The notes beneath the pieces were generated by a model. The model was given only the letters and a program-made list of their open reading frames with translations. It made no database searches and was not told where the DNA came from. This document shows, piece by piece, positions 45,427-61,758 of a stretch of DNA of 64,000 nucleotides. The stretch covers positions 1 to 64,000 of the forward strand of contig JAIXOQ010000033.1 in NCBI GenBank assembly GCA_027486675.1, written 5' to 3'. The DNA comes from Pseudomonadota bacterium. Lineage in GTDB: Bacteria > Bdellovibrionota > UBA1018 > CAIMNF01. The translations under genes and the position numbers were made by a program. The stretch's first letter is position 1; every line of letters starts with the position of its first letter.

Positions 45427-45436
45427 CCCCAGTAGG

Positions 45437-45892: not shown

Positions 45893-45970
45893 GTATCCCT
45901 TATCGGACTATTTTAGTCAGAAATTAACACCTTAACATTTGATCCTTTACCGCGATACGCTACGGGACAC

Positions 45971-47614
45971 ATGAGTTCTAACCTATTGGAAACACAGGTT
46001 AAAAAGCGAAGAACATTCGCCATTATTTCCCACCCAGATGCCGGCAAAACCACGCTTACGGAGAAGCTCCTGCTTTACGGCGGGGCGATTCACCTGGCTG
46101 GCGCGGTGCGCGCAAAAGCTTCCCAACGCCACACCACGTCCGATTGGATGGAGATTGAAAAACAACGCGGGATCTCGATTAGCACTTCAGTGCTTCAATT
46201 CGAGTTTGAAGGATCGATCTTAAACCTTCTCGACACACCGGGTCATAAAGACTTCTCCGAAGACACGTACAGAACGCTCACTGCAGCGGATGCCGCCATC
46301 ATGCTCATCGATGCGGCTAAAGGTGTAGAGCCCCAAACACGTAAACTCTTTGAGGTCTGCCGGATGCGCGGCATTCCAATTTTCACCTTCATCAATAAAC
46401 TCGATCGACCCTCACAGGAACCTCTAGAGCTCTTAAATGAACTCGAAAATGTTTTAGGCATCCGGTCCTGCCCAATGACGTGGCCGATTGGTTCTGGAGA
46501 TCGCTTTAGGGGCGTCTATGATCGAGCTTCAAAAGAGATTCTTTTTTTTAGTGCAGAAGGCGAGGCAAATACACGCGGAAGACTGGCCACAAAAAGAGTG
46601 CAAGGCATTGATGATCCGGAGTTTCTCCCTTCTTTGATCGGCGGAAGAGTGGACGAGTTCGAGGCTAAAAATATTTTTGACCAGTTCCGCTCTGAAGTAG
46701 AACTCCTTGAGGCCGCAGGAGACGAGTTTGATGAAGAACGTGTCAACGCAGGCCAACTGACTCCTGTCTTTTTTGGGAGTGCGATGAATAACTTTGGAAT
46801 CGAAAGCTTCCTACAAAAGTTTATCTCTCTTGCTCCTAAACCCGCCCCACGGAAGTCAAAAGAAGGCGCTGTCGTTGAGCCGACTCAAAATAGTTTCAGT
46901 GCGTTTGTCTTTAAGATTCAGGCAAACATGGATCCATCTCATCGGGACCGAGTAGCATTCATTCGCATCTGCTCGGGCCACTTTGAGCGCAACATGGCGG
47001 TACGCCACTATCGCTTAGAAAAAGAAATAAAACTGGCGATGCCCGTCTCTTTCTTCGGACAAGAACGCGTGGTGGTTGAGGAGGCTTGGCCAGGAGACAT
47101 CATTGGGCTGATTGACACTAACGGTTCTCTTCGCATCGGAGACACACTCAGTCAAAAAAAGGGCCTACACTTCCAAGGTGTGCCTAGCTTTTCCCCGGAA
47201 CATTTCAGCACCGTCATTTTGCTCGATCCGTTAAAACGTAAGCAGCTGCAAAAGGGAATCGAACAATTGTCCGAGGAAGGCGTCGTTCAGATTTACCGGC
47301 AACCCGGCATGGGTGACAAAGATCCTGTGCTTGGCGCTGTCGGTGCATTGCAGTTTGAGGTTTTGCAGCACCGTTTGAAGACGGAATACACAGTGGATGC
47401 TCGGCTAGAAAAACTTCCTTACGTTCACGCGCGCTGGGTTACGGGCCAAAACATTGACCCCACCGTCTTTGATCGAAGAGAAGACTCAAAGTACCTTCAA
47501 GATCGGGACAAAAACCCAGTCATCCTCTTTAAAAGTGACTGGTCTCTCAGGTGGTCCGAAGAAAACTACAAGAATATTTCTTTCGGGAAGACAGCGCCTG
47601 AGGCAAAGGCGTAA
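45971..47614 (+). CDS. prfC: peptide chain release factor 3
   Basis: G-domain AIISHPDAGKTTLTEKLL, DTPGH, NKLD. Confidence 0.95.
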   Translation: MSSNLLETQVKKRRTFAIISHPDAGKTTLTEKLLLYGGAIHLAGAVRAKASQRHTTSDWMEIEKQRGISISTSVLQFEFEGSILNLLDTPGHKDFSEDTYRTLTAADAAIMLIDAAKGVEPQTRKLFEVCRMRGIPIFTFINKLDRPSQEPLELLNELENVLGIRSCPMTWPIGSGDRFRGVYDRASKEILFFSAEGEANTRGRLATKRVQGIDDPEFLPSLIGGRVDEFEAKNIFDQFRSEVELLEAAGDEFDEERVNAGQLTPVFFGSAMNNFGIESFLQKFISLAPKPAPRKSKEGAVVEPTQNSFSAFVFKIQANMDPSHRDRVAFIRICSGHFERNMAVRHYRLEKEIKLAMPVSFFGQERVVVEEAWPGDIIGLIDTNGSLRIGDTLSQKKGLHFQGVPSFSPEHFSTVILLDPLKRKQLQKGIEQLSEEGVVQIYRQPGMGDKDPVLGAVGALQFEVLQHRLKTEYTVDARLEKLPYVHARWVTGQNIDPTVFDRREDSKYLQDRDKNPVILFKSDWSLRWSEENYKNISFGKTAPEAKA

Positions 47615-47627
47615 ACTAAATCTAAGT

Positions 47628-48788
47628 ATGAAATTAGGCCTGGTGCTGACCGGTGGTGGAGCAAGAGCTGCATATCAGGTTGGAGCCATTCAAGCGCTTT
47701 CAGAGATCGCAGGAACTGAACATAATCCCTTTCAGGTCCTGACTGGCGTTTCCGCAGGTGCCATCAACGTAGCCTTTTTAGCTAACGGCGTCGATCATTT
47801 TGGAGTCGCAGCACAGGCCCTTTGGGATCTTTGGGCGAATCTCACCACGGAACGGATTTTTAGAACCGATGCCTCAGCGGTTACTTCTGTAAGCTCAAGA
47901 TGGATTCGCACGTTAAGTTTCGGTGGATTCGCCGCTTCAAAACGTGCCAATTATTTGCTCGACACAAAACCTTTGCGCGAGCTTCTTCAGAAGGAACTCA
48001 ATTGGGATAAGATCCGCGCCAATATCGCAAATGGTCACCTGCACGGCTTAGGGTTTTCTATGACCAACTACCTCACAGGGACGGCGATCAGCGTCTATGA
48101 GGGGCATCCATCGATAGAACCCTGGCTTCGCAATACGCGACTGGGGATGCGCACCAACCTCACCACAGACCACGTGATGGCTTCGAGTGCGATTCCAGTT
48201 TTTTTCCCACCTGTCAGCATAGACGGCGCGTTTTATGGAGATGGGTGTGTTCGCCTCACCTCCCCTGTTTCACCGGCCATTCATTTAGGGAGCGACCGCC
48301 TGATCACAATCGGCATCCGGTACGCTCGAACACCTGAAGAAACGATTGCGCTCAACGCCACTCTGAGACGGGACCAGATTTCTATCGCTGAAATCGGCGG
48401 AGTACTTTTGAACGCAGTTTTCTTGGATTCATTAGAAACGGACTTAGAGCGCCTGCAAAGAATCAACAATACGATCAGTCTCATGACCGAAGAGCAACTC
48501 AACAAACTCAAGAACCCACTCAGGAATATTCCTGTCCTCGCACTTCGTCCAAGCCAAGATCTTGGGCAACTGGCTCAAGGATGCTTGAAAGAATTTCCAA
48601 CCTTCTTGCGGTTTCTGCTGCGCGGGATCGGCGCAAAAGAGGACAAAGGCTGGGACCTCTTAAGCTACCTTGCGTTTGAATCGGTCTACACCAGGCAACT
48701 TCTTGATCTTGGGTACCGAGATACCTTGAGAAAGAAGGAAGACATTCTGGAGTTTATGTTCGGGGATCCATCTAGGATTACCCGCTAG
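47628..48788 (+). CDS. patatin-like phospholipase family protein
   Basis: LVLTGGGARAAYQVGA oxyanion motif, GVSAG nucleophile motif; ATG at 47628 (ORF opens earlier, overlapping prfC). Confidence 0.8.
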   Translation: MKLGLVLTGGGARAAYQVGAIQALSEIAGTEHNPFQVLTGVSAGAINVAFLANGVDHFGVAAQALWDLWANLTTERIFRTDASAVTSVSSRWIRTLSFGGFAASKRANYLLDTKPLRELLQKELNWDKIRANIANGHLHGLGFSMTNYLTGTAISVYEGHPSIEPWLRNTRLGMRTNLTTDHVMASSAIPVFFPPVSIDGAFYGDGCVRLTSPVSPAIHLGSDRLITIGIRYARTPEETIALNATLRRDQISIAEIGGVLLNAVFLDSLETDLERLQRINNTISLMTEEQLNKLKNPLRNIPVLALRPSQDLGQLAQGCLKEFPTFLRFLLRGIGAKEDKGWDLLSYLAFESVYTRQLLDLGYRDTLRKKEDILEFMFGDPSRITR

Positions 48789-50487
48789 AGTCTAAATTCA
48801 TTTTTTCTATCAGGTACCGAAAGTTTCTCTCAATCTGACCCCTCCTCAGTTTCAGGGTCGGAGTCAACTCGTGTTCATCTACTGAAAACTCACGGGAGAG
48901 CACAGCAAACTGAAGAATTTTTTCCCAATGCGGACGATTCTTTGAAACTTGGTCTAAGTGCTCGCGGATTCGTAGACGGACACCAGAGGACACCACTTCA
49001 ATGCCCTCGATCGCGCCCGCCTGAAACCTAAGGGCCAGGAGTTCCGGCTCCTTCAGTGTGATCAACGCACCCAAATGCCCGCGTCCATCCCCGACGATGC
49101 AAGCTTGAGAAATCTCTGGCAGTTCTTGGATCGCTGCCTCTAAGGAATTGGGGGATACCATGCGCCCACTTAGAAGTTTGACGATTTCGCGATTGCGTCC
49201 AATGATGCGCAACTCGCCTGAGGACATCGACCAGTCGCCCAGATCTCCGGTCAAGAGCCAGCCATCCACTAAAGCGGCTGAGGTTTCTTCTTTCTTTCGG
49301 TAGTACCCTAAAAAAACATTTCGCCCACGAACCCGAATCTCACCATCCGGCCCGATCTTCACTTCAACTCCACTTGCAGGCTTCCCCACTGAATCTGGAT
49401 CAACCTGATCTAATGCGGTTGCTGTGATCACACCCGCGGTCTCACTCATCCCGTAGACTTCGTGGATAGGAATTCCAATATGTTGAAACCAACGAGACAC
49501 CTCGGGGGGAAGTTTTGCTGCACCACTGACGGCAAGACGTAGGTCCCCAAGTCCCAGGGAAATACGTACTTTTTTTAAGAGCCAGTCCCTAGGAAAATCC
49601 AGCCATTGAGATTTCTCGGACCAGATCCAGAGCTTACTCAAGGCACGCTTCTGCAACTCTGGAACACTTTCAAGCTGAGACAGCAAAGCATCACGGAGTT
49701 TCGACCAGACCCTAGGCACCGCTAAAAATAATGTAGGACGCGCAACCTTGAGTTCTTCCGAAAAGCGCTCAAAGTCCTGACAAAGATGCACGGAGTAGCG
49801 TTGGCTGATCGCAACTGCGATCGTCTGCAGCTTTTCCGCTACGTGAGATAGAGGCAGGAAGGAGAACAAACGCCCGTGAGCAAACGGTAGATTCCATTGA
49901 CGAGTCAAACAATCGGCCGCAAAGGACAGATTGTCTAAACTGAGCATGACCCCTTTTGGCATCCCGGTGGTTCCGCTGGTGTAGACAATCCATGCTGGAA
50001 GGAGCGGATCGATCTCAGACAGATACTTCTCAAAAGTGAGAACTGCACCCTGAGACTCTTCTAAAGACGGAATCCAAGATTCGAGCACGATCCAGTTACT
50101 GCAGCCCACTTCTAGGCTACGAAGTCGGTCTCGGTAAACGCTCGATTGAACAATGATCCAAGTCGGATCGGTTTCTTCTAAGATCGCTTTCACTTCTGGA
50201 TCGATAGAATTTGGAGTGAGGGAAACACATATACCCCCTGCGAGAACGATCCCTAACTCCCAAAAAATTCGTGTAGCAGAATTGTGGGCATAAATCGCGA
50301 CCCTATCCCCTGGCTTAAATTCACCTTCGCGGAGCTGCCTTGCAATGGCCTCAACCGTTCTTAAGGCGTCTCCCACAGGGAATTCCTGCAGCCGGTGATC
50401 CGCATCCATCTGCTGATACAAAACCGCACCTTCGGCATCTTTGTGCCAAAGGAGGAAGCGGTGTAGAAGAGTACGCGCGTCGCGCAT
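48778..50487 (-). CDS. AMP-dependent acyl-CoA synthetase/ligase (long-chain fatty acid-CoA ligase-like)
   Basis: YTSGTTGMPKGV AMP-binding motif. Confidence 0.85.
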   Translation of the reverse strand: MRDARTLLHRFLLWHKDAEGAVLYQQMDADHRLQEFPVGDALRTVEAIARQLREGEFKPGDRVAIYAHNSATRIFWELGIVLAGGICVSLTPNSIDPEVKAILEETDPTWIIVQSSVYRDRLRSLEVGCSNWIVLESWIPSLEESQGAVLTFEKYLSEIDPLLPAWIVYTSGTTGMPKGVMLSLDNLSFAADCLTRQWNLPFAHGRLFSFLPLSHVAEKLQTIAVAISQRYSVHLCQDFERFSEELKVARPTLFLAVPRVWSKLRDALLSQLESVPELQKRALSKLWIWSEKSQWLDFPRDWLLKKVRISLGLGDLRLAVSGAAKLPPEVSRWFQHIGIPIHEVYGMSETAGVITATALDQVDPDSVGKPASGVEVKIGPDGEIRVRGRNVFLGYYRKKEETSAALVDGWLLTGDLGDWSMSSGELRIIGRNREIVKLLSGRMVSPNSLEAAIQELPEISQACIVGDGRGHLGALITLKEPELLALRFQAGAIEGIEVVSSGVRLRIREHLDQVSKNRPHWEKILQFAVLSREFSVDEHELTPTLKLRRGQIERNFRYLIEKMNLDSSG

Positions 50488-50502
50488 CCCTTAAGGATGC
50501 CC

Positions 50503-52320
50503 TTAGAGGGCCCCGAATGCACTAAACTCAGCGGGGCTTAGGCTTGCCACACCAAATTTTTCTAAAATGAGCTTTCGGTAAAGCCTGTGGTACCAAAAGT
50601 AATTCCGGCCAATCAGAGTGACGTAATTCCTAGTTTCAGCGTAAGGAATCAGATCTAAGAAAAGCATCCTGTTCCCCACCGGATAGCGTGCACGCCAGCG
50701 ATCGACCGCTTCTGGACCCGCATTGTAGGAGGCGAGTGCTAGCTCAACGTCCCCATCAAACCGATTAACGAGCATCTGAAAGTATTGAATCCCAAGACGA
50801 ATATTTGTATCCGCATCGAGAAGCTGCCGCTTGCTCACACCACGCTGCATCGTGCGCGCTGTCGCTGGCATCAGCTGCATGAGACCCACTGCTCCAACCG
50901 GCGAGCGGGCATTGGCCCGGAATGCGCTTTCCTGGCGGATTAGGGATGCCACCAAGATGGGATTCATACGGCCTGCGTGTTTTAAAACGAGATCAAAAAA
51001 CTCGAGCGGGTAGAAGAGCTGAAGCGTTTTATCGACGACGTATTCTGCCTTAGAGCGAAATACGCTATCGAGCAGACGAAATAGTGCTACGGGGTTGCCT
51101 GCGCGGTAAGCGAAGGATGCGAGGTAAAGCCTGACACCCGGTTCAAGCTGACTGAGCTCCTCAAGCTTCGGCTGAATCGGCGTCAGCAGCTTCAGCACTA
51201 AATCTTTACGTTTTCTTCGTGTCATTTCTTCCATGGCTTGGATCCATGGATTCACGCGCTCATCGAGTGCACTCCGCGTTTGTACGAGCGGATCTATTTC
51301 TTGGCCTAAGTTCCCAGACAACACCGAATCCCCGTCGGATAAAGAAAGCGTATGAAAGCCAAGAGGATTCATCTGAAAAAGTGCGTCGTAGTTATCAAAA
51401 AACGCGCTTTTATCCTTTGTTTCCCGAGCACACCATGCGGTCCAATAACGTGCTCGTGAAGAGTAGTCATTCATGACGGCATTGGATAAACGCTGCAAAG
51501 GGGGCGCCGCTGTCACGCAGTCTTTCTTAATGATCGATAGCAGTGCCAGACGAAATCTGGAGTTGTCCGTGTATTTGGTCGTCTCTGCGCACTGATCGGC
51601 CCTGGCATAAAGCCGGATAGCACGTTCGCGAAACTCTTCTTCAGGCATTTGCTCTTCGCTTTTTAGACCTAAGAAATTGTAGAGTTCGCTCGGCGCACAA
51701 ATCCCAGGCTCTAAAATCTTTGCTTCGACGGTCTTCAGCCCTTCTGTGATTCCAGGAAATGTTTTCAGCGCACGGTAATAGTCCCCTGGCCGTTGCTTCG
51801 GCACGGGAGCATATTCACCTGACTCAAGTTTTTGTGCGATTTGTTCAATCACAGGTGCGGGAGCGCGTCTACGCCGTTTTTTCGGGCGTTCTTGCTCCAC
51901 TTTTAAGTTGGGCGCAGTCGGTCCTTCTAACGCATCTTCTGACTGAAGCCAGCGAGCATACCATTTCGGCTTTAAAAATCGACAGGCTTCAGGCGCCCCG
52001 GTGAGCACACGGCAACGAAGAGGAAGCGGACGGGAGCCGGGGTTGACTGCCAATGCGCGCTCAAATTCATCAAAAAAGGAAATGTCTTCAGTTTTTAGGC
52101 TGGCATCGGGCGGGACATTTTCCAGAACTGAAGAAAATCGAACACCACTGCCCGATTCAGTAGTTCTTGCGTCGATCACTCGACGCGTGCGGACTTCTTC
52201 GCGGATCTCTCTCTTCACGGAACTACATGAAATAAAGAACGGGAGAAGGCTTAAAAAAAGTGCGAAACTGAGGCGGTGAGCTGGCTTTGGATAACAGATG
52301 AGTGGTCGTCTCTTGATCAT
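50503..52320 (-). CDS. soluble lytic murein transglycosylase (superhelical domain + SLT domain), lipoprotein
   Basis: Lipobox FISCSS; SLT motif GLMQLMPATA...ASYNAG. Confidence 0.8.
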   Translation of the reverse strand: MIKRRPLICYPKPAHRLSFALFLSLLPFFISCSSVKREIREEVRTRRVIDARTTESGSGVRFSSVLENVPPDASLKTEDISFFDEFERALAVNPGSRPLPLRCRVLTGAPEACRFLKPKWYARWLQSEDALEGPTAPNLKVEQERPKKRRRRAPAPVIEQIAQKLESGEYAPVPKQRPGDYYRALKTFPGITEGLKTVEAKILEPGICAPSELYNFLGLKSEEQMPEEEFRERAIRLYARADQCAETTKYTDNSRFRLALLSIIKKDCVTAAPPLQRLSNAVMNDYSSRARYWTAWCARETKDKSAFFDNYDALFQMNPLGFHTLSLSDGDSVLSGNLGQEIDPLVQTRSALDERVNPWIQAMEEMTRRKRKDLVLKLLTPIQPKLEELSQLEPGVRLYLASFAYRAGNPVALFRLLDSVFRSKAEYVVDKTLQLFYPLEFFDLVLKHAGRMNPILVASLIRQESAFRANARSPVGAVGLMQLMPATARTMQRGVSKRQLLDADTNIRLGIQYFQMLVNRFDGDVELALASYNAGPEAVDRWRARYPVGNRMLFLDLIPYAETRNYVTLIGRNYFWYHRLYRKLILEKFGVASLSPAEFSAFGAL

Positions 52321-53223
52321 GTTCTCGATACTTCTCTTCGTTTCATGAACGAAGCTGTAAATTTGGGAATACCTACCTATTGGTCCGAACCAACATTAAT
52401 TCTAGCATCGCATGAACCGAATGCACTGCGTGTGAGAAGGTATAGTGGAGATTTTAAACTCGGTGAAATTGAACTTGTCCCTGCGTCACAGTTTTGGCAG
52501 GCGCATTACCGGGTAGATCCGCCCGTGAACGATGCGTACTTTGCCCCGCTTGCTGTGCTGGAGCGTGCGCTCGGGGATCGGGTGATGAATCCTCCCGCAC
52601 TTTTGCGAAATCAAAGTGAAAAAATCCCTCCTGAGTCGCTGAAAGAGTTCAGACCGGTCACGGTGACTCTAGGGTCTGCGAAAGACTTAAGGTTGGCTTG
52701 GGATGAACTGGTGAACATCCAGGAACTGGTGGTGAAACCCTGGGGCGAAGCCCAAAGCAAGGGCGTGCACCGCGTGAAAAAACCAAATGACTTTTCTGCA
52801 TGGGAGGCATTGGTGAATCAGGAGACCCAGGCGTTCACACGCACGGTCGTGATCCAGGAATTTTTGGATGGGATCGAGCGGGGCGAACTTCGGTCCTGGT
52901 TTATTTTTGGAAAATTCTTAGGAGCACTGCGCAAACATCCACTGCCCAATGACTTCCTGGTATCGGTCGATGCTGGCTCCCGCCTGGAGCGGTATGACGT
53001 TAAGCTCGAAGACAAGCGTGAGCTGGATGCCTTGGGAGCGGTGCTTATGGCCCAAGGCGCAGCCCTCGCTGCGATTGATTGGATCCCAGGCCCGGGGAAG
53101 AGCGGATTTTCAGGCGCAAAGATTTCGGACTACAACATCACATCGCCAGGACTGCTGGTCCAGATGGAGCAACTTCACGGAAAGAACTTTGCTGCAGAAG
53201 CGATTGGGTGGCTGCGGCGGTGA
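52276..53223 (+). CDS. glutathione synthetase-like ATP-grasp protein
   Basis: The N-terminal D..(x)..DTS..FMNEA pattern and C-terminal ATP-grasp resemble GshB. GTG at 52276 would overlap the divergent slt 5' end by 45 nt; alternative ATG at 52345. Confidence 0.5.
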   Translation: MSWLWITDEWSSLDHVLDTSLRFMNEAVNLGIPTYWSEPTLILASHEPNALRVRRYSGDFKLGEIELVPASQFWQAHYRVDPPVNDAYFAPLAVLERALGDRVMNPPALLRNQSEKIPPESLKEFRPVTVTLGSAKDLRLAWDELVNIQELVVKPWGEAQSKGVHRVKKPNDFSAWEALVNQETQAFTRTVVIQEFLDGIERGELRSWFIFGKFLGALRKHPLPNDFLVSVDAGSRLERYDVKLEDKRELDALGAVLMAQGAALAAIDWIPGPGKSGFSGAKISDYNITSPGLLVQMEQLHGKNFAAEAIGWLRR

Positions 53224-53251
53224 GGCCGCAGCCAAAACGTTAAAACAACGG

Positions 53252-53620
53252 CTACTTTTTTGCAGGAAGAGCTGCAGGCGCTTTGCACTGTCCACCGACG
53301 CTCACTAGCGGCGACACACAGCCTGACTTGATCGGGAGCGTAGTCACAGGGCGCGCTATCCCTTTCGATGGGCCTGCCGCGCCGCCATTCTGAGAGCTGG
53401 TGCTCCGAAGGACCTCGCTCTCTCCGCCACAAGCTTTCGATGCATCGGCCCAACAATTCTTTTCGGTGTCAGTCCGGCCATTGCCTTCAGTCCCATTTTT
53501 GCAGGTCCAAGAACAGGACCAACCGGTCTCATACTTGTACGCTCTGCTTTGCTCCGGAAAAAAAACAGCAGTAATCACGGTAATAAAGAGAAAGGAGTAA
53601 AACTTGTTTATCTTCTTCAT
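53252..53620 (-). CDS. small secreted cysteine-rich protein (operon gene 3)
   Basis: Signal peptide; SCSWTCKNG...NCWADASKACGGE pattern shared with the two upstream genes; ATGA overlap. Confidence 0.55.
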   Translation of the reverse strand: MKKINKFYSFLFITVITAVFFPEQSRAYKYETGWSCSWTCKNGTEGNGRTDTEKNCWADASKACGGESEVLRSTSSQNGGAAGPSKGIARPVTTLPIKSGCVSPLVSVGGQCKAPAALPAKK

Positions 53621-53910
53621 GACTTCTTCCCCTGGATGTTCTGGAATACACTCTTGGGAAGTACATTCTTGGGAATCGCTTTGCGCTCATTGCAGCTGCT
53701 TCCAGACTTCTCTTCGCAGTCGACAGTATCGCAACCACCGGTCGAATTAAAACTACCTGTAGCGCCACTGGAACAGACCCAAGTACATCGACACCCTCCC
53801 GAGTCCATCGCCATACTGCCCCAAGTCCGTTTTGCGAAAGCATCATTCATGAAGAGGGCCGTGAACATGAACGTGATCACCGTAACTTTTGAACCTTTCA
53901 AATTTTTCAT
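53617..53910 (-). CDS. small secreted cysteine-rich protein (operon gene 2)
   Basis: Signal peptide; CRCTWVCSSG...GGCDTVDCEEKSGSSC. Confidence 0.55.
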   Translation of the reverse strand: MKNLKGSKVTVITFMFTALFMNDAFAKRTWGSMAMDSGGCRCTWVCSSGATGSFNSTGGCDTVDCEEKSGSSCNERKAIPKNVLPKSVFQNIQGKKS

Positions 53911-54179
53911 TTCGAGGCCCCATTCTGCAGCACCGTAATCGCAGGCTTCGTCAAAGTAGTTCCGCCCTTAACTGCAATTTTTTCACCACAGGCATTAATT
54001 GCCGTAGTCCTGCAATTCAGTGCATTCGCCCACTCCCCAAGCTGCTGGCTTCCTGAATTGCCGTTGTCACACGTGTATGTGCAATACTTAGAATTATTCA
54101 TGTCCACTTGTTTAAGTGCAAAAGCGGGACTCACTGAAAACAACATCGCAAAAACCGAAACCATAATCATCAACTTCAT
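53907..54179 (-). CDS. small secreted cysteine-rich protein (operon gene 1)
   Basis: Signal peptide MKLMIMVSVFAMLFSVSPAFA; YCTYTCDNG...NCRTTAINACGEK. Confidence 0.55.
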   Translation of the reverse strand: MKLMIMVSVFAMLFSVSPAFALKQVDMNNSKYCTYTCDNGNSGSQQLGEWANALNCRTTAINACGEKIAVKGGTTLTKPAITVLQNGASK

Positions 54180-54344
54180 TCTGTTCCCCTTTTTCTTAGT
54201 TCTTGACCAAACTACTGGTGACTACCAAGAACACGAAAACTCCCGTCTTCCGGTCGAGCTAGTGTTGATTTTAGATTACCCTCCGCCCTAAACAAAAATC
54301 AATGCGTCATCTATGACATGCGCCATGAGGCGCTTGAGAGGTTC

Positions 54345-54385
54345 GTAAATTTACAAATAGAATCTGAGTTTCCATTTGTAAATTT
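54345..54385. repeat. perfect 13-bp inverted repeat TAAATTTACAAAT-N15-ATTTGTAAATTTA
   Basis: Read directly from the intergenic region between the Cys-rich operon and cassette copy 1. Confidence 0.5.
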
Positions 54386-54454
54386 ATAGGGAATCTCTGA
54401 TTCCGGCTGAAGACTGGCCCGCTCCTGGGTTTACAACCCTGCTTTCTGCACTGC

Positions 54455-54468
54455 CGTTTCCGGAAACG
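54455..54468 (+). promoter_or_regulatory. 14-bp perfect palindrome CGTTTCCGGAAACG upstream of cassette copy 1
   Basis: Identical palindrome recurs upstream of copy 3 (57681-57694) within a conserved ~90-bp block. Confidence 0.35.
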
Positions 54469-54515
54469 AAAACTTCCTAAGTGTTTCATGAGCCTAGCCT
54501 AGGCAACTTTCGCCA

Positions 54516-54543
54516 TTGACGAGCCCCCCCCCCAATCTAAATT
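54516..54543 (+). promoter_or_regulatory. putative promoter TTGACG-N16-TAAATT with a 10-C homopolymer in the spacer
   Basis: Conserved in all three cassette copies; C10 tract at 54524-54533. Confidence 0.4.
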
Positions 54544-54606
54544 GGAAAAGTTGCCAGGGCGGGTGGTCTGTCGGGGCGGGATAACTTTTAGGGAGATAAA
54601 ACCGAG

Positions 54607-54954
54607 ATGAAAAAGATTTTTGGACTCATGGCGTTTGGGATGGTGTTGGTTGCGGGGACTGCGGAGGCACGCAATTACGCCTGCTTTAACTGTAAAGTGG
54701 GTCAACCCTGCAAAGTGGACCTATTGGTCACTGTTACGAACTCAAATGGCACAGTTACAACCAGTACAGAGTCTATCAATGGAATCGGGGTCAGGGACGG
54801 AAGCGGCACAGCTTGTGGCGCGCGCGTAGCGACCGCCGCGCTTCCGCTTGGGAGCCGACTTGTGCCACAAACAAACTGCACCGGAGGCGCGGTAGCGGTA
54901 GCCGGTATGTGCGCTAAGGCATCAATCGCAGTCTCGGCAACACCAACAAAATAA
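54607..54954 (+). CDS. secreted cysteine-rich protein, cassette copy 1 (conserved signal peptide, variable mature domain)
   Basis: MKKIFGLMAFGMVLVAGTAEA|RNYACFNCKVGQPCK...; RBS TAGGGAGAT. Confidence 0.6.
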   Translation: MKKIFGLMAFGMVLVAGTAEARNYACFNCKVGQPCKVDLLVTVTNSNGTVTTSTESINGIGVRDGSGTACGARVATAALPLGSRLVPQTNCTGGAVAVAGMCAKASIAVSATPTK

Positions 54955-54979
54955 CCGCCCTCAATCATTCAATTGATAT

Positions 54980-55022
54980 CGGGCCCTGGGACCAGACCTT
55001 GTCTGCCCGGGGCTTCTTTTTG
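54980..55022 (+). terminator. strong rho-independent terminator (conserved with the copy 2 terminator)
   Basis: gggccctgggaccagacc/ggtctgcccggggc bulged stem + TTCTTTTT. Confidence 0.65.
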
Positions 55023-55115
55023 CGTGTGCTCGCCACACGATTTGCCTATGGTAAACTTCCAAAAATGCAGGCCTTGCTTCAGTGGAACTATCGCTCTTTT
55101 CCGCTGGGAGAAACC

Positions 55116-55382
55116 ATGAACATTCAGATGGTGAATTTCGGAGAGTTTTTAATGTCGCGCCCAGCTGGACATGTGGCAGCGCAAATCATCGTTGAGAATT
55201 TCAGACCTGCTTCCCACGACTAAGTCATTGAGCTCGACTTTCTTAACGTGAAAGCAATCGGTCCATCTTGGTTGCACGAAGTGGTCAAGGGACTGCGCGG
55301 CAAGTACCCAAACAAAATCCAAGTTTTAGATCAAGGCAATGCCTCCGTGATTGAGTCGCTCAAGTTTGTCGACCTTCGGTAG
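55116..55382 (+). pseudogene. STAS-like (DUF4325) gene inactivated by an in-frame TAA (GAA>TAA at codon 36)
   Basis: About 90% nt identity to the intact gene at 57341-57607. Upstream, 55065-55115 keeps only the first and last codons of the GHKL ATPase gene (internal deletion), producing the chimeric ORF 54999-55223. Confidence 0.65.
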
Positions 55383-55519
55383 TTACGGCCTGAGTAAGAA
55401 CCAGATCATTTGGGTTGCACGTCCAGCGCATCAAGCGCAACTTCTGTTGCACCCAAAAAGTAACAATTCTTCATCTCTAAATCTTGGTCTCACCCTGGGG
55501 TTTTTTGTGCCGAAATCAG

Positions 55520-55915
55520 TCAATCCCCGTACACATCAAACTTCAATGTAGATCGTGCGTGAAGCAGCTTCTTATCCAAAGTCCACAGCGGTACTTTGTA
55601 TTCAGCCGCAAGCGTTCCAATCAGACAGTCTAAGGTCCCCAAAGTGATGCCGTTTTTCCTGGCCCGGAAATAATTCCACGCTGCCTGCCCCCAATGACGA
55701 TCTGTGACTTCCAGAAATTCAAAACCCAGCATGTACTCCCAGAGACTATGAAAAATTTCAGGCGTCCGGGCACCCTGGCAAACTTCTACGTGTATCGGAC
55801 GCACAATGCAGATCGCTGCGTTGTTCTTGATCATACGCTTAAGTCTCATGCACTCCGGATTCTTCGGAAGTGATCCTGCAATCCAAACCGAACTATCGAC
55901 GAGCACGGGTTGCAT
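55520..55915 (-). CDS. vapC: type II toxin VapC (PIN domain)
   Basis: VLVDSSVWI N-terminal PIN motif; conserved acidic residues. Confidence 0.7.
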   Translation of the reverse strand: MQPVLVDSSVWIAGSLPKNPECMRLKRMIKNNAAICIVRPIHVEVCQGARTPEIFHSLWEYMLGFEFLEVTDRHWGQAAWNYFRARKNGITLGTLDCLIGTLAAEYKVPLWTLDKKLLHARSTLKFDVYGD

Positions 55916-56108
55916 TGTTTGACCCTTTTTTCGTCACGGCACTTGAATCAAAGAAGTCCGTCCCAAGCATCTCAAACATACCCTGCCTTCTGCTTTGAGC
56001 GATCAGCGCATCAAGCGCATTGTTCAAGGTCTCTTTGATTGAATTCGTCCCGCCTAGTTTCCGGGCCAAATTTAACTTCTCTTCATCAAGCTCAACTGAG
56101 GTCTTCAT
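55893..56108 (-). CDS. vapB: type II antitoxin VapB (ribbon-helix-helix/Rv0623-like)
   Basis: 71 aa; MKTSVELDEEKLNLARKLGG...; overlaps the vapC start. Confidence 0.6.
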   Translation of the reverse strand: MKTSVELDEEKLNLARKLGGTNSIKETLNNALDALIAQSRRQGMFEMLGTDFFDSSAVTKKGSNNATRARR

Positions 56109-56226
56109 ATATCAAATATCTCCGTATCAGATATATTGTATCACAGCAGCATGGATCGCGATTCAGCGTGAACTGGGAATTAGTTCTTTAATAAAAACAA
56201 ACACTTACGGCGCGCAATTTTCACCA

Positions 56227-56254
56227 TTGACGAACCCCCCCCCCAATCTAAATT
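56227..56254 (+). promoter_or_regulatory. putative promoter TTGACG-N16-TAAATT with C10 tract in the spacer (copy 2)
   Basis: C10 at 56235-56244. Confidence 0.4.
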
Positions 56255-56319
56255 GGAAAAGTTGCCAGGGCGGGCGGTCTGCCGGGGCGCGCTCTTAACT
56301 TTATGGAGATTTAACCGAG

Positions 56320-56649
56320 ATGATGAAGATTTTTGGGCTCATGGCGTTTGGGATGTTGGTGATGGCAGGGAATGCGGAGGCAGACGTTAAATGTGATCCT
56401 TATCAAGGTAGAGGTTTCAAGTGTAGCGGCACCCTTGCCTGCGGGAAATCATTCTTAGTGATAGAGCTACAGGGAGGTGGAGGCGGCAGTTGGCACTGCA
56501 GCGCCACTCGCGTCGGTCAAAGCCCAGACATTGTGACAGGTGGTTCACCCATTTCTTCACTCCCTCAATCAACAGTGCAGCAGCTTCCTGCCGATCTTAA
56601 GGCTAAGGTGCAAGCAGCTCAGCAAAAAGCCGCAGCACCAAAAAAGTAA
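56320..56649 (+). CDS. secreted cysteine-rich protein, cassette copy 2
   Basis: MMKIFGLMAFGMLVMAGNAEA|DVKCDPYQGRGFKCSGTLACGK...; K/A-rich C-terminal tail. Confidence 0.6.
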   Translation: MMKIFGLMAFGMLVMAGNAEADVKCDPYQGRGFKCSGTLACGKSFLVIELQGGGGGSWHCSATRVGQSPDIVTGGSPISSLPQSTVQQLPADLKAKVQAAQQKAAAPKK

Positions 56650-56675
56650 CCGCTCTTAATCGTTCGATTCATTTC

Positions 56676-56717
56676 CGGCCCCGGGACCAGACCTGGTCTG
56701 CCCGGGGCTTCTTTTTG
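56676..56717 (+). terminator. strong rho-independent terminator
   Basis: gccccgggaccagacc/ggtctgcccggggc (14 bp with 1-nt bulge) + TTCTTTTT. Confidence 0.7.
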
Positions 56718-56759
56718 CCAGTGCGACGCCACACTGAGTGTCTATGATAAACTTCAAAA

Positions 56760-57344
56760 ATGCAGGCCTTGCTTGAATGGCACTTTTCCACAAAACCTCA
56801 AACAGACAACGCCGAGGTTTCTGGAACTAGAGATGTTTTTGAAGCTCGGTCTCAAAAAGTATTTTCTGCTCTTCTAAAACATGGTTTTACCGAATCTGAT
56901 GCAAGCCTGGTCTATTCAATCATTGGAGAACTCGGCAATAACTCCTTTGACCACAATCTCGGTTTTTGGCGCGATCAGCCCGGCTGTTACTTCAGTTTTG
57001 AGTTCGATGCTTCGGGCGTAACCCTTGGACTGGCAGACCGCGGACGTGGGATCTTTAACTCGCTCAAGAGAGTCCTTCCAGAACTCCAGAGCGACCAAGA
57101 GGCAATCGAAATTGCTTTTCAAAGAGTCATCTCAGGTCGCGCCCCTGAGCAGCGTGGTAATGGACTTAAATTTGTGCGGGCGATCATCAATGGCAATCCA
57201 AAACGAGGGCTTGTAGCTCGTTCTGGCACAGGTCTACTCGCCTGTGGTGGCCATGCAAGTTGGATCGCTACGACATCGAACTCACTTTTTTCGGAACCCA
57301 CCGTAGGCGGCACAATCGCTCTTATTCGCTGGGAGAAACCATGA
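56760..57344 (+). CDS. GHKL-superfamily ATPase (HATPase_c; anti-sigma-factor/partner-switching kinase-like)
   Basis: N-box ELGNNSFDH, G1 box DRGRGI, G2 box GNGLKF; 194 aa with no sensor or transmitter domain. Confidence 0.6.
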   Translation: MQALLEWHFSTKPQTDNAEVSGTRDVFEARSQKVFSALLKHGFTESDASLVYSIIGELGNNSFDHNLGFWRDQPGCYFSFEFDASGVTLGLADRGRGIFNSLKRVLPELQSDQEAIEIAFQRVISGRAPEQRGNGLKFVRAIINGNPKRGLVARSGTGLLACGGHASWIATTSNSLFSEPTVGGTIALIRWEKP

Positions 57345-57607
57345 AAATACAGATGGTGAAATTTGGAGAGTTTTTGATGTCGCGCCCAGCGGGACATGAA
57401 GCGGCGCAAATCATCGTTGAAAATTTCAGACCCGCGTCCCACGACGAAGTGATTGAGCTCGACTTTCTGAACGTGAAAGCAATCGGCCCATCCTGGTTGC
57501 ACGAAGTGGTCAAAGGACTGCGTGGCAGTTACCCAAACCAGATCCAAGTTTTAGATCAAGGCAATGCCTCCGTGATTGAGTCACTCAAGTTTGTCGATCT
57601 TCGGTAG
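57341..57607 (+). CDS. STAS-like domain protein (DUF4325-like), translationally coupled to the upstream ATPase
   Basis: ATGA start/stop overlap; GGGAGA RBS; MKIQMVKFGEFLMSRPAGHEAAQIIVENF...IELDFLNVKAIGPSWLHEVV. Confidence 0.55.
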   Translation: MKIQMVKFGEFLMSRPAGHEAAQIIVENFRPASHDEVIELDFLNVKAIGPSWLHEVVKGLRGSYPNQIQVLDQGNASVIESLKFVDLR

Positions 57608-57680
57608 CTGCGGCCCAAGTAAACATCAGATCATTTTGGTTTCACGGCCGGCCGAGCTCGATTGAGCTCCCCAGCACTGC

Positions 57681-57694
57681 CGTTTCCGGAAACG
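57681..57694 (+). promoter_or_regulatory. 14-bp palindrome CGTTTCCGGAAACG upstream of cassette copy 3
   Basis: Second exact occurrence. Confidence 0.35.
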
Positions 57695-57741
57695 AAAATT
57701 TCCTAGGCGTTTCATGACCTTAGCTTAGGCAACTTTTGCCA

Positions 57742-57765
57742 ATGACGAGCCCCCCCATCTAAAGT
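57742..57765 (+). promoter_or_regulatory. degenerate cassette promoter (ATGACG ... TAAAGT) with C7 tract and shortened spacer
   Basis: C7 at 57750-57756; spacer is 12 nt versus 16 nt in copies 1 and 2. Confidence 0.3.
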
Positions 57766-57830
57766 GGAAAAATTGCCGAGGCGGGCGGTCTGCTTCGGCG
57801 CGGGATAATATGTAGGGAGATCATACAGAA

Positions 57831-58082
57831 ATGATGAAGATTTTTGGGCTCATGGCGTTAGGGATGGTGGTGTTGGCAGGGGCTGCGGAGGCGAAGCGAA
57901 TTTGCAGACAAGGATCTCCAGCAACTGGATGTTCGATAGAGTGCACATCCCAAAGTTCCAACGATTGTACTATTGCGTGCACTGGATCTCAGTGCCGTGT
58001 TATCAGATCGGGTGGCCCCGATTATTATGGGGAGTGCTACGGCAAAGCTGTTCAAAAGAACAACACTGCTGCTTCCAAATAA
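57831..58082 (+). CDS. secreted cysteine-rich protein, cassette copy 3 (8 Cys)
   Basis: MMKIFGLMALGMVVLAGAAEA|KRICRQGSPATGCSIECTSQSSNDCTIACTGSQC... Confidence 0.55.
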   Translation: MMKIFGLMALGMVVLAGAAEAKRICRQGSPATGCSIECTSQSSNDCTIACTGSQCRVIRSGGPDYYGECYGKAVQKNNTAASK

Positions 58083-58207
58083 ACATTAGATTATCAAATA
58101 CTACCCCTTTTGTGTGCTGCGTCCGCAGTCATCCTGAAAGGGGGCCCTCTCTCCAGTTACCGATACCCGAAACAAATTTTTCCTAACCAAGACTCAGCCC
58201 AAGAAAC

Positions 58208-58444
58208 TCACTTCACGCACTTTCCACTGGAGAGCTTCAGTCCTGCATCGCATTTACCCGAGGCGCAGGCCTGGCCGAGTGCGCACTCTGTCTTTGAGGA
58301 CGACGTGCCTACAGTAACCGGAACAGGCCTACAGTTGCCGCGATCCGGTACATAACCAGGAGGACACTTCCGGTCCGTGGTGGCCCCGAAGGAACTGGAA
58401 CAACAAACTAACCCCAAAAAAACCATGAAACCAAAAGTTCTCAT
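58208..58444 (-). CDS. small secreted cysteine-rich protein
   Basis: Signal peptide MRTFGFMVFLGLVCCSSSFG; mature region with 6 Cys. Confidence 0.5.
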   Translation of the reverse strand: MRTFGFMVFLGLVCCSSSFGATTDRKCPPGYVPDRGNCRPVPVTVGTSSSKTECALGQACASGKCDAGLKLSSGKCVK

Positions 58445-58473
58445 TGTTGCCTCCTAGATCCCTAAAACTTCAG

Positions 58474-58812
58474 TTATCTACACTGACCAGCACCTAACTT
58501 TTTCCCTGGGAGACACACACTGCCAGGCAGTGCAATCTTCCCGCGCGCCTTACAGTTAAAGTAGAAACGGCTCTGCTTACCTACGAAAGCGGTTGGCGAA
58601 CAAGCCATTGCGCCAGTCAAGTCTGCTACGTCTTCATTTCTGCTATTACAGCAGGAAAGTGCGCGAGTATTGTGTTCCGACGTAAAAAGGCACAAAACAG
58701 GCCCGCTTGTCGCATTCGGAGTCGTCATAAACTGACGTGACGCATTGTCCGACGGTATACAAGTTTGAGCACCTGCCGAAATGGATAAAAGAGCGCTAAG
58801 TAGAATGATCAT
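58474..58812 (-). CDS. small secreted cysteine-rich protein
   Basis: Signal peptide MIILLSALLSISAGAQT; 8 Cys including CC. Confidence 0.5.
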   Translation of the reverse strand: MIILLSALLSISAGAQTCIPSDNASRQFMTTPNATSGPVLCLFTSEHNTRALSCCNSRNEDVADLTGAMACSPTAFVGKQSRFYFNCKARGKIALPGSVCLPGKKLGAGQCR

Positions 58813-58898
58813 AAAAATCCCCTTCTACAAGCTTATCGACACAACGCGATAAAAATCAACGTGTCCCGACAGACACACAAAACCCTACTCGCCAAGAC

Positions 58899-60533
58899 TC
58901 AGGGAGAGGCAGGCATTATCCCCTGCCCGAAAATCACCCCACGCTGAGGACCTCGAAGCGGAAGGTCTTCCCACGAAGTGCTCGATACCAAACACTCGCC
59001 CATCAGTTTTGCGCCTGCGAGCTGAGGATCGGTGTGCTTTGGGATGATCTTCTCTTCCGTCACCTCAAACTTTGAACCCCGAAGCTTGAGGCACGACAAA
59101 CCCTTAAAACCGCGATCTAGGCAAGTCAGCATGCGTCCAAAGTCATAGGCCTGGGAACACTGCAAATCCCGTCCCAGTCGCATCTGTGAAAAAATACGTT
59201 CATCGCTATAGTTAGGGCGCTCCGCTTCACTCAAAACACTTCTGTAGTCATTTCCATGGATCAAGGCAGAACAACCCGGAAGATGTTTCGAGCTTTTCGC
59301 GCACAGATAGTCGACATCAAATAGATACTTTTTCAGCGCGCCAAGATAATGATGGATCGCCTCCACATTTTTCCGTCGCCCCCACAGATCGGAACTATGG
59401 TGCGTACTTAAGAAAGCCCCCGTGTAGTCAGCAAGAAACTGCACACGAACAATCAAATCCCGAACCCGCGAAACTTCAGCTGCGTAAAATGCGAGTGTAC
59501 GGCACGCACTTTTGATCGACTGGCGATCTGGACTTGACACTAACTCATCCTCGTCATTTTCGTAATCGAGGAGAGTATTGTATTTGACGTACTTCGCCCT
59601 GAGCGGTGGGATGACTTTACTATTTTTGATTTCTGTCTCTGCACGTTTGAGAAACGCCTGAAAGACATTAGAAAACATCTGATCCCCTGAAAAAGAAAGG
59701 GCATCAAAGGTCAAAAGTTGGGATGCATCTTCGGGTGTCGCCATAGAACTCTTGGGTCCCGACGATTCCGCCTCAGCAATAAGCACAGGGAGGTTCGTCC
59801 TCACTTGCAATTCAAGATTCGAGTCTTCGCTTGAAACTCGTTTCTTTCGATTCAGGGAATAACTCAATTTTAAGATCTTGTCAGCCTCCTCCCGAGAGAG
59901 AACTTTCCCCAGTAGTTCCCCCGTAGGATTCAACAATTTATCCAGCTCAGCAATCGCATCGACCTGCGTACCGCGTGTCTCATCCTTGCTTTGCTTTTTT
60001 CGGATCAAGAGTAGATCCAGGACGTAGCCCTCCTGGACAACTGAGAGATAGCCAAAGCCGCATTTTTGCCGAAATGAGGCGACACTTGATTTTAATTGGT
60101 CAAGGTCACTCGGGATCATTTTGTACTCTGCTTCGGAATGAACATCCCGAAATAGCTCTAATCGGATATGGCGAACTTCACTTTCATTTGACCCCAAAAT
60201 GGATCGACTTACGCCCACCTTAAGGGCATCACCGACAGCCATCCCTGAAGAGGTAGCAAGCTCAAGCTCGCTAAAAGAAGAAATTTTGGAGTTGGAATAA
60301 CGAACACTAAACTCACCCAAATTTCTTAAACTGGGTATTTCGAAGCCTACCGCATTCTGCTCAACGCAAGTGCCCGCCTTGAAGTCACCGGTATAGACAT
60401 CAGCAGCTTGCCCATTAAAGACGCTTTCCTGCATGAGACTTACGTCGAGCACATCGACGGAGGACGCGCCAAAGGCATGATTTCCTTGGAATATCGCAAC
60501 CATCAGACCACACACCCCGAAGAGCTTAAACAT
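58899..60533 (-). CDS. large hypothetical secreted protein (544 aa)
   Basis: Start taken at MFKLFGVCGLMVAIFQGNHAFGA signal peptide; no family recognised. Confidence 0.5.
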   Translation of the reverse strand: MFKLFGVCGLMVAIFQGNHAFGASSVDVLDVSLMQESVFNGQAADVYTGDFKAGTCVEQNAVGFEIPSLRNLGEFSVRYSNSKISSFSELELATSSGMAVGDALKVGVSRSILGSNESEVRHIRLELFRDVHSEAEYKMIPSDLDQLKSSVASFRQKCGFGYLSVVQEGYVLDLLLIRKKQSKDETRGTQVDAIAELDKLLNPTGELLGKVLSREEADKILKLSYSLNRKKRVSSEDSNLELQVRTNLPVLIAEAESSGPKSSMATPEDASQLLTFDALSFSGDQMFSNVFQAFLKRAETEIKNSKVIPPLRAKYVKYNTLLDYENDEDELVSSPDRQSIKSACRTLAFYAAEVSRVRDLIVRVQFLADYTGAFLSTHHSSDLWGRRKNVEAIHHYLGALKKYLFDVDYLCAKSSKHLPGCSALIHGNDYRSVLSEAERPNYSDERIFSQMRLGRDLQCSQAYDFGRMLTCLDRGFKGLSCLKLRGSKFEVTEEKIIPKHTDPQLAGAKLMGECLVSSTSWEDLPLRGPQRGVIFGQGIMPASP

Positions 60534-60580
60534 GGGACCGAATACTATAGAATTTCGATCTAAAGTACAATCCATTGAAA

Positions 60581-61234
60581 TCAAAGACTCACCCACGGGT
60601 TTGGGATGCGCGCAAAGACCGGCACAATCGCAATTTCTGTAAATCCTTGCTTGAGAAACTGTGGGGTAGAAGTCTTGGGCTGCGTCATCGCCACCTCGAC
60701 TCTGACCTGATGGACATTTGCGAGCCTGTACGACCGTGCGCGCATCAAATCCGCGTAAAGCCCCTCTTTCCTCCGTTCAGGCACCACAAAAGCACCCCGG
60801 AGGTACGCTTGATCCGCGACTTGAAAAGAACTCACCCCACCCACGATATCGCCGCCTTCTTCCACAATCAGCGTTTCGTGCCTTGAGTCATTGAGTAAAA
60901 AATACGTCGACTCTATAAGCTGATTCTTAAAATTAGGGTGGATCTGCCAAGCGCGGATTTTACTTTCAACAAAGCGAGGCACGTCTTTCACTTCAAGGAT
61001 CCGAAACCGATTCATATCGGGGCAGATCAGTTTCGCTGGATCCAGCGACCGCATCAGCGCGCGGATCTGAATCACCTCCAGCACTTTGCATTCATCTACA
61101 AGATATCGGTGTAAATCCGGATGCGAACAGGGCCAGAGATGAATCGTGAAATTTGCACTTCTGCGATCATACGCATCGATCACCGCACGAATCTCATGAA
61201 ACCGAGACGGGGGCAGACGCATTCTTGTGATCAA
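60581..61234 (-). CDS. GNAT family N-acetyltransferase-like protein
   Basis: C-terminal IVGGVSSF...AYLRGAFVVPERRKEGLYADLM acetyl-CoA-binding-like motif. Confidence 0.5.
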   Translation of the reverse strand: MITRMRLPPSRFHEIRAVIDAYDRRSANFTIHLWPCSHPDLHRYLVDECKVLEVIQIRALMRSLDPAKLICPDMNRFRILEVKDVPRFVESKIRAWQIHPNFKNQLIESTYFLLNDSRHETLIVEEGGDIVGGVSSFQVADQAYLRGAFVVPERRKEGLYADLMRARSYRLANVHQVRVEVAMTQPKTSTPQFLKQGFTEIAIVPVFARIPNPWVSL

Positions 61235-61362
61235 ATTGTGCCAGCGCTCTTTTGAGGCAGGGGAATCAACATAGGCGAACTCTGGTTCGTACTGGACGAA
61301 AGCGCCGGGAGTGACCGAACTGGTTGCAAGAAAACTAAATTGTATGAAGTCGTCGAGAAGAA

Positions 61363-61731: not shown

Positions 61732-61758
61732 GCTCCTTCAACTTTTCTTAACGCCACC

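Follow-up and report, generated by a model that had tools for sequence, protein, structure and literature searches.

Three coupled genes in a Bdellovibrionota genome encode an orphan family of putatively exported four-cysteine mini-domains

We analyzed a stretch of 64,000 nucleotides (hereafter, the window) from the genome of a Pseudomonadota bacterium assigned by GTDB to Bdellovibrionota (UBA1018; CAIMNF01), corresponding to positions 1 to 64,000 of contig JAIXOQ010000033.1 in assembly GCA_027486675.1, with particular attention to three small minus-strand genes, P1, P2 and P3. On the comparisons set out below, the three proteins are paralogues belonging to a rare, previously undescribed family built on a four-cysteine mini-domain of approximately 40 residues. 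We see in it a well-defined orphan family, with nothing so far to suggest a new mechanism: a new small family of a familiar general kind, the putatively exported disulfide-rich mini-proteins, with an apparently novel cysteine framework.

The cysteine framework and the P1–P3 operon

P1–P3 all share the pattern C-x-[WY]-[TV]-C-x-[NS]-G-x2-G ... C-x7-C-[GN], and in the six-frame translation of the whole window the motif C.[WYF].C.[NS]G had exactly three matches, one in each of the three open reading frames (ORFs). When the signal peptides were removed, BLASTP comparisons of the mature parts were significant for P1/P2 (E = 1.2e-4) and P1/P3 (E = 2.8e-4); the P2/P3 comparison was not, and these two proteins are linked through the profile only. 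A profile of the three mature parts, used with HMMER to search 1.84e9 representative proteins, retrieved the three queries and one true outsider, P0011 (E = 8.9e-5). Given the significant BLASTP values and the retrieval of an independent protein, the similarity of P1–P3 is therefore well beyond chance, and the recognizable shared cysteine framework proposed in the initial annotation is borne out.

An alignment of the mature regions with the cysteines highlighted, a check proposed in that annotation, was obtained for five members (P1, P2, P3, P0011 and P0013, the last being encoded next to P0011). The four cysteines are invariant (C-x3-C ... C-x7-C), and the alignment also displays an aromatic residue between the first two cysteines, an [NS]-G turn and a C-[GN]-[GE] end. 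The combination of a signal peptide, CX3C and CX7C with the intervening aromatic residue was found in all five proteins. P2 and P0011 each have one more cysteine pair, located identically in the two proteins (C-x-C-x3-C ... C-x4-C-x7-C). Extra cysteines were gained only as co-occurring pairs, and the number of cysteines is even in all complete members, including the soil ORFs described below (4, 6, 6, 6, 4, 6, 6, 8). Conservation is nearly all structural (cysteines, aromatic residue, NG turn, small residue on the helix face), with varying loops and tails. A short hydrophobic segment, [KR]-P-x-x-[TV]-[VIL], recurs in the otherwise disordered C-terminal tails. P1–P3 have no common signal peptide or upstream DNA among them.

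The mature part of P1 has four cysteines (C33-x3-C37 ... C56-x7-C64) and that of P2 has six (C40-x-C42-x3-C46 ... C60-x4-C65-x7-C73). The core of P3 (C36-x3-C40 ... C56-x7-C64) is followed by a C101-x10-C112 pair in a 55-residue tail predicted to be disordered. The signal peptides were judged by eye, with von Heijne rules, to be of the Sec type: the three N-termini have a basic n-region, a hydrophobic core of 13–15 residues and an AxA-type cleavage site (AFA|L, AFA|K and SRA|Y, respectively), and no lipobox was found on inspection of the N-termini of P1, P2 and P3. The mature proteins have a net charge of +3 to +5. Both the P1/P2 and P2/P3 junctions are 4-nt ATGA overlaps, and a GGGG/AGGGG(A) Shine-Dalgarno-like site precedes each of the three start codons, those of P2 and P3 (GGGG/AGGGGA) being located within the respective preceding gene. 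The three genes thus form one translationally coupled operon, and we consider the operon to be real. The gene model of the initial annotation (three minus-strand genes of 90, 97 and 122 aa at 53252–54179, joined by ATGA overlaps, each encoding a predicted signal peptide) agrees with the ORFs in position, length, junctions and N-termini, and the cysteine patterns that it quoted were all found in the mature parts (4, 6 and 6 cysteines).

On the upstream side of the operon, in the divergent intergenic region before P4, there is a perfect 12-bp inverted repeat (Table 1), which as RNA would form a 17-bp AT-rich hairpin. No further copy of the 12-mer was found in the window, and we consider this repeat a candidate operator or hairpin. 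The GC-rich hairpin at the other end of the operon lacks a U-tract and is therefore not a canonical intrinsic terminator.

Searches of known families agreed with the initial annotation, in which the family was not recognized. Neither P1–P3 nor their relatives matched any family in Pfam, NCBIfam, PHROGs or PADLOC, a profile search of PDB sequences gave 0 matches at E<=10, and comparison of the predicted fold with PDB folds gave no match and no structural similarity to solved defensin folds. Word-index homology searches returned nothing beyond the queries, P0011 and P0013. Several candidates were rejected. Likeness to DUF6520 (PF20130) was limited to a sub-threshold score for P1 (20.8 bits versus a cut-off of 25.4) that was lost once the signal peptide was removed; the mature domain is below the gathering threshold, and neither the mature parts nor the other four members (P2, P3, P0011 and P0013) matched this family. 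A sub-threshold match of P1 to 7TM_GPCR_Str was also a signal-peptide artefact. In the exhaustive HMMER search, P0008, P0010 and P0012 were low-complexity repeat translations, and P0009 was a 2321-aa multi-repeat protein in which only NG..G and N.CG fragments matched.

Relatives and predicted fold

The exact P1–P3 proteins were found only in the 71,414-bp source contig and in one read assembly 100% identical to it. P0011 (85 aa) is encoded on contig JAIXUO010000058.1 of a metagenome-assembled genome (MAG), GCA_027483485.1, and P0013 (88 aa), the second member in this MAG, is encoded 10 nt downstream from P0011. The pair is flanked by a YceI gene on one side and a Fic gene on the other, and its surroundings are thus unrelated to those of P1–P3. 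The two MAGs were assembled from freshwater mesocosm metagenomes (BioProject PRJNA767443, runs SRR16126844 and SRR16126884; PMC9040730). Identity over the core is 41% between P1 and P0011 and 39% between P3 and P0013, such that the first and last genes of the two arrays correspond, and the duplication therefore predates the split of the two genomes. As judged from these identities, the array of P1-type and P3-type genes is older than the divergence of the two genomes, and the duplication is old, not ongoing. The initial annotation had suggested a disulfide-stabilized mini-domain family diversifying by tandem duplication: this interpretation is supported by the four invariant cysteines and the predicted core, with the refinement that the duplication is an old one.

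More distant relatives were sought with a DNA pattern for C-x-W-T-C-x-N-G-x-x-G, which matched metagenome contigs at 120 loci at least. Among the matches listed, there were four high-GC soil ORFs (L061, L062, L079 and the partial L134) with P3-like spacing and 39–47% core identity to P3. The three complete ORFs have a predicted signal peptide and carry the core at the extreme C-terminus. The helix motif of the soil proteins is C-x3-C-x3-C-G-G-x-C, the middle cysteine occupying the position at which the window family has Ala/Ser. These ORFs had been chosen by the first motif, and they were therefore re-tested with non-circular hidden Markov models (HMMs). With an HMM of the unselected second half, L079, L061 and L062 ranked 1–3 of 134 segments (E = 0.0024, 0.029 and 0.12, respectively), and we regard three or four of the soil ORFs as probable, not proven, relatives. 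Two of the soil contigs, L062 (3531–6628) and L079 (1873–4121), encode several further unrelated small secreted proteins with 6–9 cysteines each, for which no Pfam match was found. Motif matches in viral contigs were rejected as relatives, being due to chance or to Cys/Gly/Ser repeat proteins of jumbo phages. In the jumbo-phage-sized contigs L015, L017, L019, L028 and L110, the motif matched a phage protein with long repeats of the latter kind (..CSWTCGNGCSGGCTGNCSSGCSSSCSGNC..), unrelated to the family.

The structure prediction proposed in the initial annotation gave a compact core with the two cysteine pairs on facing elements of secondary structure. The AlphaFold2 model of full-length P1, obtained with the five-sequence alignment, has a core with a predicted local distance difference test (pLDDT) score of 71–75, with strands at residues 20–25, 31–36 and 42–46 and a helix at 53–64. 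In the model of mature P3, residues 1–40 have a pLDDT of 75–90 (strands 2–4, 8–13 and 18–21; helix 26–37), and the tail, with pLDDT <50, is predicted to be disordered. In both models, CX3C is located on the second strand and CX7C on the helix. We therefore describe the predicted fold as a compact beta-beta-beta-alpha core with a double staple between strand and helix and disordered basic tails. The rise per residue is about 3.3 Å in a strand and 1.5 Å in a helix; four strand residues (~13 Å) therefore span about the same distance as eight helix residues (~12 Å), and the CX3C register on the strand would match the CX7C register on the helix. In such a model, the Cys-aromatic-Cys face of the strand and the Cys-small-Cys face of the helix would be turned towards each other.

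The variable island around the operon

Two contigs of a sister species (L003 and L004, ~80% nucleotide identity) are syntenic with the window at 44959–53215 and 61356–64000, and differ from it in the interval between the ATP-grasp gene adjoining P3 and an HU-like gene. This interval is 8.1 kb long in the window versus ~3 kb in the sister species (L003, 6088–9106), where it encodes unrelated secreted proteins, a signal-peptide-bearing FG-GAP protein of 469 aa and a 430-aa protein, with no homologue in the window. By this synteny, the interval is a replacement hotspot, and the P1–P3 operon is accessory and located in a variable island. The ATP-grasp protein is GSH-S/RimK-like, with scores far below the glutathione synthase cut-offs. 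A synteny trace of this gene across genome contigs gave only an irrelevant match in Saccharibacteria. A lytic transglycosylase (SLT) gene is located 1 kb from P1–P3.

Table 1. Positions, in the window, of the P1–P3 genes and of features in and around the variable island.
Feature	Positions	Strand	Remarks
P1, 90 aa	53907–54179	minus	signal peptide residues 1–21 (..SPAFA|LK), predicted
P2, 97 aa	53617–53910	minus	signal peptide residues 1–26 (..NDAFA|KR), predicted
P3, 122 aa	53252–53620	minus	signal peptide residues 1–27 (..EQSRA|YK), predicted
P1 core mini-domain, residues 32–66	53982–54086	minus	YCTYTCDNG...NCRTTAINACGEK
P2 core mini-domain, residues 40–75	53686–53793	minus	CRCTWVCSSG...DCEEKSGSSCNER
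P3 core mini-domain, residues 36–66	53423–53515	minus	CSWTCKNG...NCWADASKACGGE
Shine-Dalgarno-like AGGGG	54186–54190	minus	6 nt upstream of P1 start; read from sequence
Perfect 12-bp inverted repeat	54347–54385	none	AAATTTACAAAT-N15-ATTTGTAAATTT; divergent intergenic region, operon upstream side, before P4
GC-rich 10-bp hairpin	53209–53234	minus	~18 nt past P3 stop; overlaps end of convergent ATP-grasp gene
Variable island	53216–61355	none	between GSH-S-like ATP-grasp gene and HU-like gene; by synteny
P4	54607–54954	plus	small secreted Cys-rich ORF
P5	56320–56649	plus	small secreted Cys-rich ORF
P6	57831–58082	plus	small secreted Cys-rich ORF
P7, 78 aa	58208–58444	minus	small secreted Cys-rich ORF
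P8, 112 aa	58474–58812	minus	small secreted Cys-rich ORF

A screen of the window for small ORFs (45–160 aa, a signal-peptide-like N-terminus and at least four cysteines) gave eight ORFs, seven of them within 5.2 kb (53252–58444). All eight proteins of the island (P1–P8) are net cationic (+3 to +6). No significant similarity was detected between P4–P8 and P1–P3, and homology between the two sets was rejected, the hints of it (an ACGxxxA segment and C-x10-C pairs at the C-terminus) not being significant. The C-x10-C pairs are found near the C-termini of P3, P4, P7 and P8 (e.g., CPPGYVPDRGNC and CLPGKKLGAGQC), and this similarity is not statistically significant. Within 58208–60596 (minus strand), P8 and P7 follow, on the same strand, a gene for a 565-aa protein with an apparent N-terminal hydrophobic segment, for which no family match was found.

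The loci of P4, P5 and P6 (54440–58200, plus strand) are paralogous, being 80–95% identical over ~170 nt of upstream DNA and the 63 nt encoding the signal peptide. This identity is lost precisely at the predicted signal-peptidase site, and the sequences of the mature parts are unalignable; P4 and P5 re-converge over the last ~20 nt of the coding sequence and the terminator hairpin. As read from these alignments, the architecture of P4–P6 is that of a conserved signal with a hypervariable mature part. The promoters of these three genes have poly-C tracts (C10, C10 and C7 at 54524–54533, 56235–56244 and 57750–57756, respectively) within the spacer between a –35-like TTGACG and a –10-like TAAATT/TAAAGT. 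Only four tracts of at least seven C were found in the whole window, and the P4–P6 promoters are candidate slipped-strand, phase-variable promoters. Downstream from P5, there are two overlapping genes (56760–57607), one HATPase_c_2-like (194 aa) and the other DUF4325 STAS-like (115 aa), and this pair looks like the partner-switching type. A second copy downstream from P4 (54973–55383) is degraded, having undergone an internal deletion and a frameshift. Genes for a VapB antitoxin (71 aa) and a PIN-domain VapC (131 aa) are inserted between the P4 and P5 modules (55520–56108, minus strand).

Possible roles and comparison with known systems

We propose that P1–P3 would be co-translated and exported by Sec, with cleavage of the signal peptides, and that the periplasmic oxidation machinery would form two parallel disulfides per domain. 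The CX3C of a beta-strand would thereby be stapled to the CX7C of the alpha-helix that follows it, within a domain of the form C-x-[WY]-[TV]-C-x-[NS]-G-x2-G-(8–14 residues)-C-x3-[A/C/S]-x3-C-[GN]-[GE], in which the conserved Trp/Tyr would pack against the small residue midway along the helix; P2 would carry a third disulfide. Since nearly all of the conserved positions are structural, and variation is found in the loops and in the C-terminal tails, which are lysine-rich and predicted to be disordered, the domain looks like a stable scaffold displaying variable surfaces. Structural-only conservation with variable loops is typical of toxin, defensin and inhibitor scaffold families. The location of the genes in an island that varies between strains and encodes many other small secreted proteins, cationic and Cys-rich, therefore suggests extracytoplasmic binding or antagonistic effectors, and not core physiology. 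Our preferred reading, to which we give about an even chance, is that P1–P3 are accessory exported disulfide-stapled scaffolds that probably act in extracytoplasmic binding or antagonism (bacteriocin- or defensin-like, possibly jointly). Joint action of the paralogues is suggested by their translational coupling and by the retention of the gene order. Disulfides, export and antagonistic role are all inferred from the sequences.

A number of observations weigh against this reading. No immunity, transporter or processing gene was found near P1–P3, no small membrane-protein ORF or ABC transporter was found in or beside the operon, and no neighbour is conserved between the loci; the antagonistic role is therefore a guess from context. 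In a diderm, Sec export alone leads to the periplasm. P1–P3 have low codon-usage scores that do not distinguish one frame from another, and expression, export and disulfides are predictions from the DNA. The AlphaFold2 models were built on five sequences. Support for the soil relatives is moderate: with the five-member HMM, the soil ORFs scored 20.7–25.1 bits versus up to 22.1 bits for decoys with the same first motif and were thus not separated from these, and L134 was not separated from decoys by the second-half HMM in the set of 134 segments.

The known systems closest in design are the cis-defensins, which include the bacterial xanthusin-1 and actifensins, and in which the defining CS-alpha-beta motif pairs a helix CX3C with a strand CXC, the helix precedes two disulfide-linked C-terminal strands, and there are three conserved disulfides and a GXC gamma-core (PMC11561630). 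As in P1–P3, the precursors are small, have a signal peptide and frequently come from paralogous genes, two parallel disulfides (predicted, in the case of P1–P3) tie an alpha-helix to a beta-strand, and the sequence is hypervariable except for cysteine and glycine; some cis-defensins have no antimicrobial activity. However, by analogy, the staple of P1–P3 would keep the strand-to-helix ratio but have a doubled register and a reversed order (strand CX3C then helix CX7C, rather than helix CX3C then strand CXC), with three predicted strands ahead of the helix in the five-sequence models. Among the five members, neither a CXC downstream from a helix CX3C nor a GXC column is conserved. As P1 and P0013 have only four cysteines, the basic framework would comprise two disulfides instead of three, and P1–P3 differ further in their long disordered tails and in the lack of any sequence or fold match to these proteins. 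It is tempting to see in the family a new structural class of strand-helix disulfide-stapled peptides, an independently arisen, double-register and order-reversed analogue of CS-alpha-beta, deployed by freshwater and soil bacteria, from variable islands rich in small Cys-rich proteins, as co-expressed multi-component antimicrobial or prey-targeting effectors, but we consider this extended proposal rather improbable. P1–P3 resemble Sec-dependent and multi-peptide (class II) bacteriocins as small exported cationic accessory peptides from adjacent co-transcribed genes, but they have no immunity gene, dedicated transporter or double-glycine leader, and no similarity to the bacteriocin models of Pfam and NCBIfam. 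The conotoxin-type design, with a conserved signal and a hypervariable mature part, is exactly that displayed by P4–P6. For P1–P3, the likeness to conotoxins is an analogy only, in the fixed cysteine scaffold with variable loops, as their signal peptides and upstream DNA are not shared among them.

Other roles can be envisaged. P1–P3 may serve in periplasmic self-protection, as inhibitors, immunity-like or stress proteins that remain in the periplasm of the producer and bind or neutralize an enzyme or toxin (lytic enzymes, proteases or lysozyme-type attack). The periplasm is the default destination of proteins with a Sec signal in a diderm with no dedicated secretion system encoded nearby, small and stable predicted scaffolds with variable loops would suit such a function, and the island contains VapBC and other conflict-type genes, with the lytic transglycosylase gene close by. 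However, the sister species keeps both the SLT and the ATP-grasp genes without the small genes, hence they are not functionally linked to these; no gene for a cognate toxin is apparent, and neither in sequence nor in fold was any similarity found to known inhibitors of the periplasm. We consider this role rather unlikely. More doubtful still is an extracellular or envelope heteromer, in which P1–P3 would join through beta-augmentation of the [KR]-P-x-x-[TV]-[VIL] tails into a fibre or a surface layer component. ATGA coupling suggests a fixed stoichiometry, the order of a P1-type gene followed by a P3-type gene is retained in the second genome, and the short hydrophobic motif recurs in the tails; these tails are, however, predicted to be disordered (pLDDT <50), the probable soil relatives are single and without tails, no chaperone, usher or secretion genes were found nearby, and the sister species lacks P1–P3 altogether. 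Instead of forming disulfides, the four conserved cysteines, which lie close together in the predicted fold, might bind a metal (Cu, Zn or Fe-S), P1–P3 then acting as metal chaperones or buffers of the periplasm, but this is very improbable: the number of cysteines is even in every complete member, with gains only in pairs, their spacing is not of the CxxC type, the proteins have neither His/Met ligand motifs nor a Pfam metal-binding match, genes for metal homeostasis are lacking in the vicinity, and the export compartment is oxidizing.

The two remaining readings are unlikely. The ATP-grasp gene directly beside P3, and the resemblance of tandem small genes to multi-precursor clusters, might suggest that P1–P3 are precursors of a ribosomally synthesized and post-translationally modified peptide of the graspetide type, modified by the adjacent enzyme. 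However, this gene is convergent to P1–P3 and is kept beside SLT in the sister species (L003 and L004) without the small genes, there is no ATP-grasp gene near P0011/P0013, and P1–P3 have rule-based Sec signal peptides and not cytoplasmic leader peptides; the idea, to which we attach scarcely any probability, was rejected on the basis of the synteny and the signal peptides. It is hardly credible that the ORFs are not genes and that the motif is a chance or repeat-derived artefact. They are short and their codon-usage scores are weak and not frame-specific, but Shine-Dalgarno-like sites, ATGA coupling and signal peptides were found for all three, the motif occurs in the window three times, once in each ORF, and the same framework is present in signal-peptide ORFs of a different genome.

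Should the predicted fold and staple prove to be true, P1–P3 and their relatives would represent a new minimal bacterial disulfide-rich scaffold of ~40 residues and two disulfides, without relatives in Pfam, NCBIfam or PDB, and scaffolds of this type serve as starting points in the discovery of antimicrobials and the engineering of peptides. The island contains eight small secreted Cys-rich genes, three of which have near-identical promoters and signal peptides with unalignable mature parts, and its content therefore suggests that uncultured freshwater bacteria hold an under-explored reservoir of exported mini-proteins.

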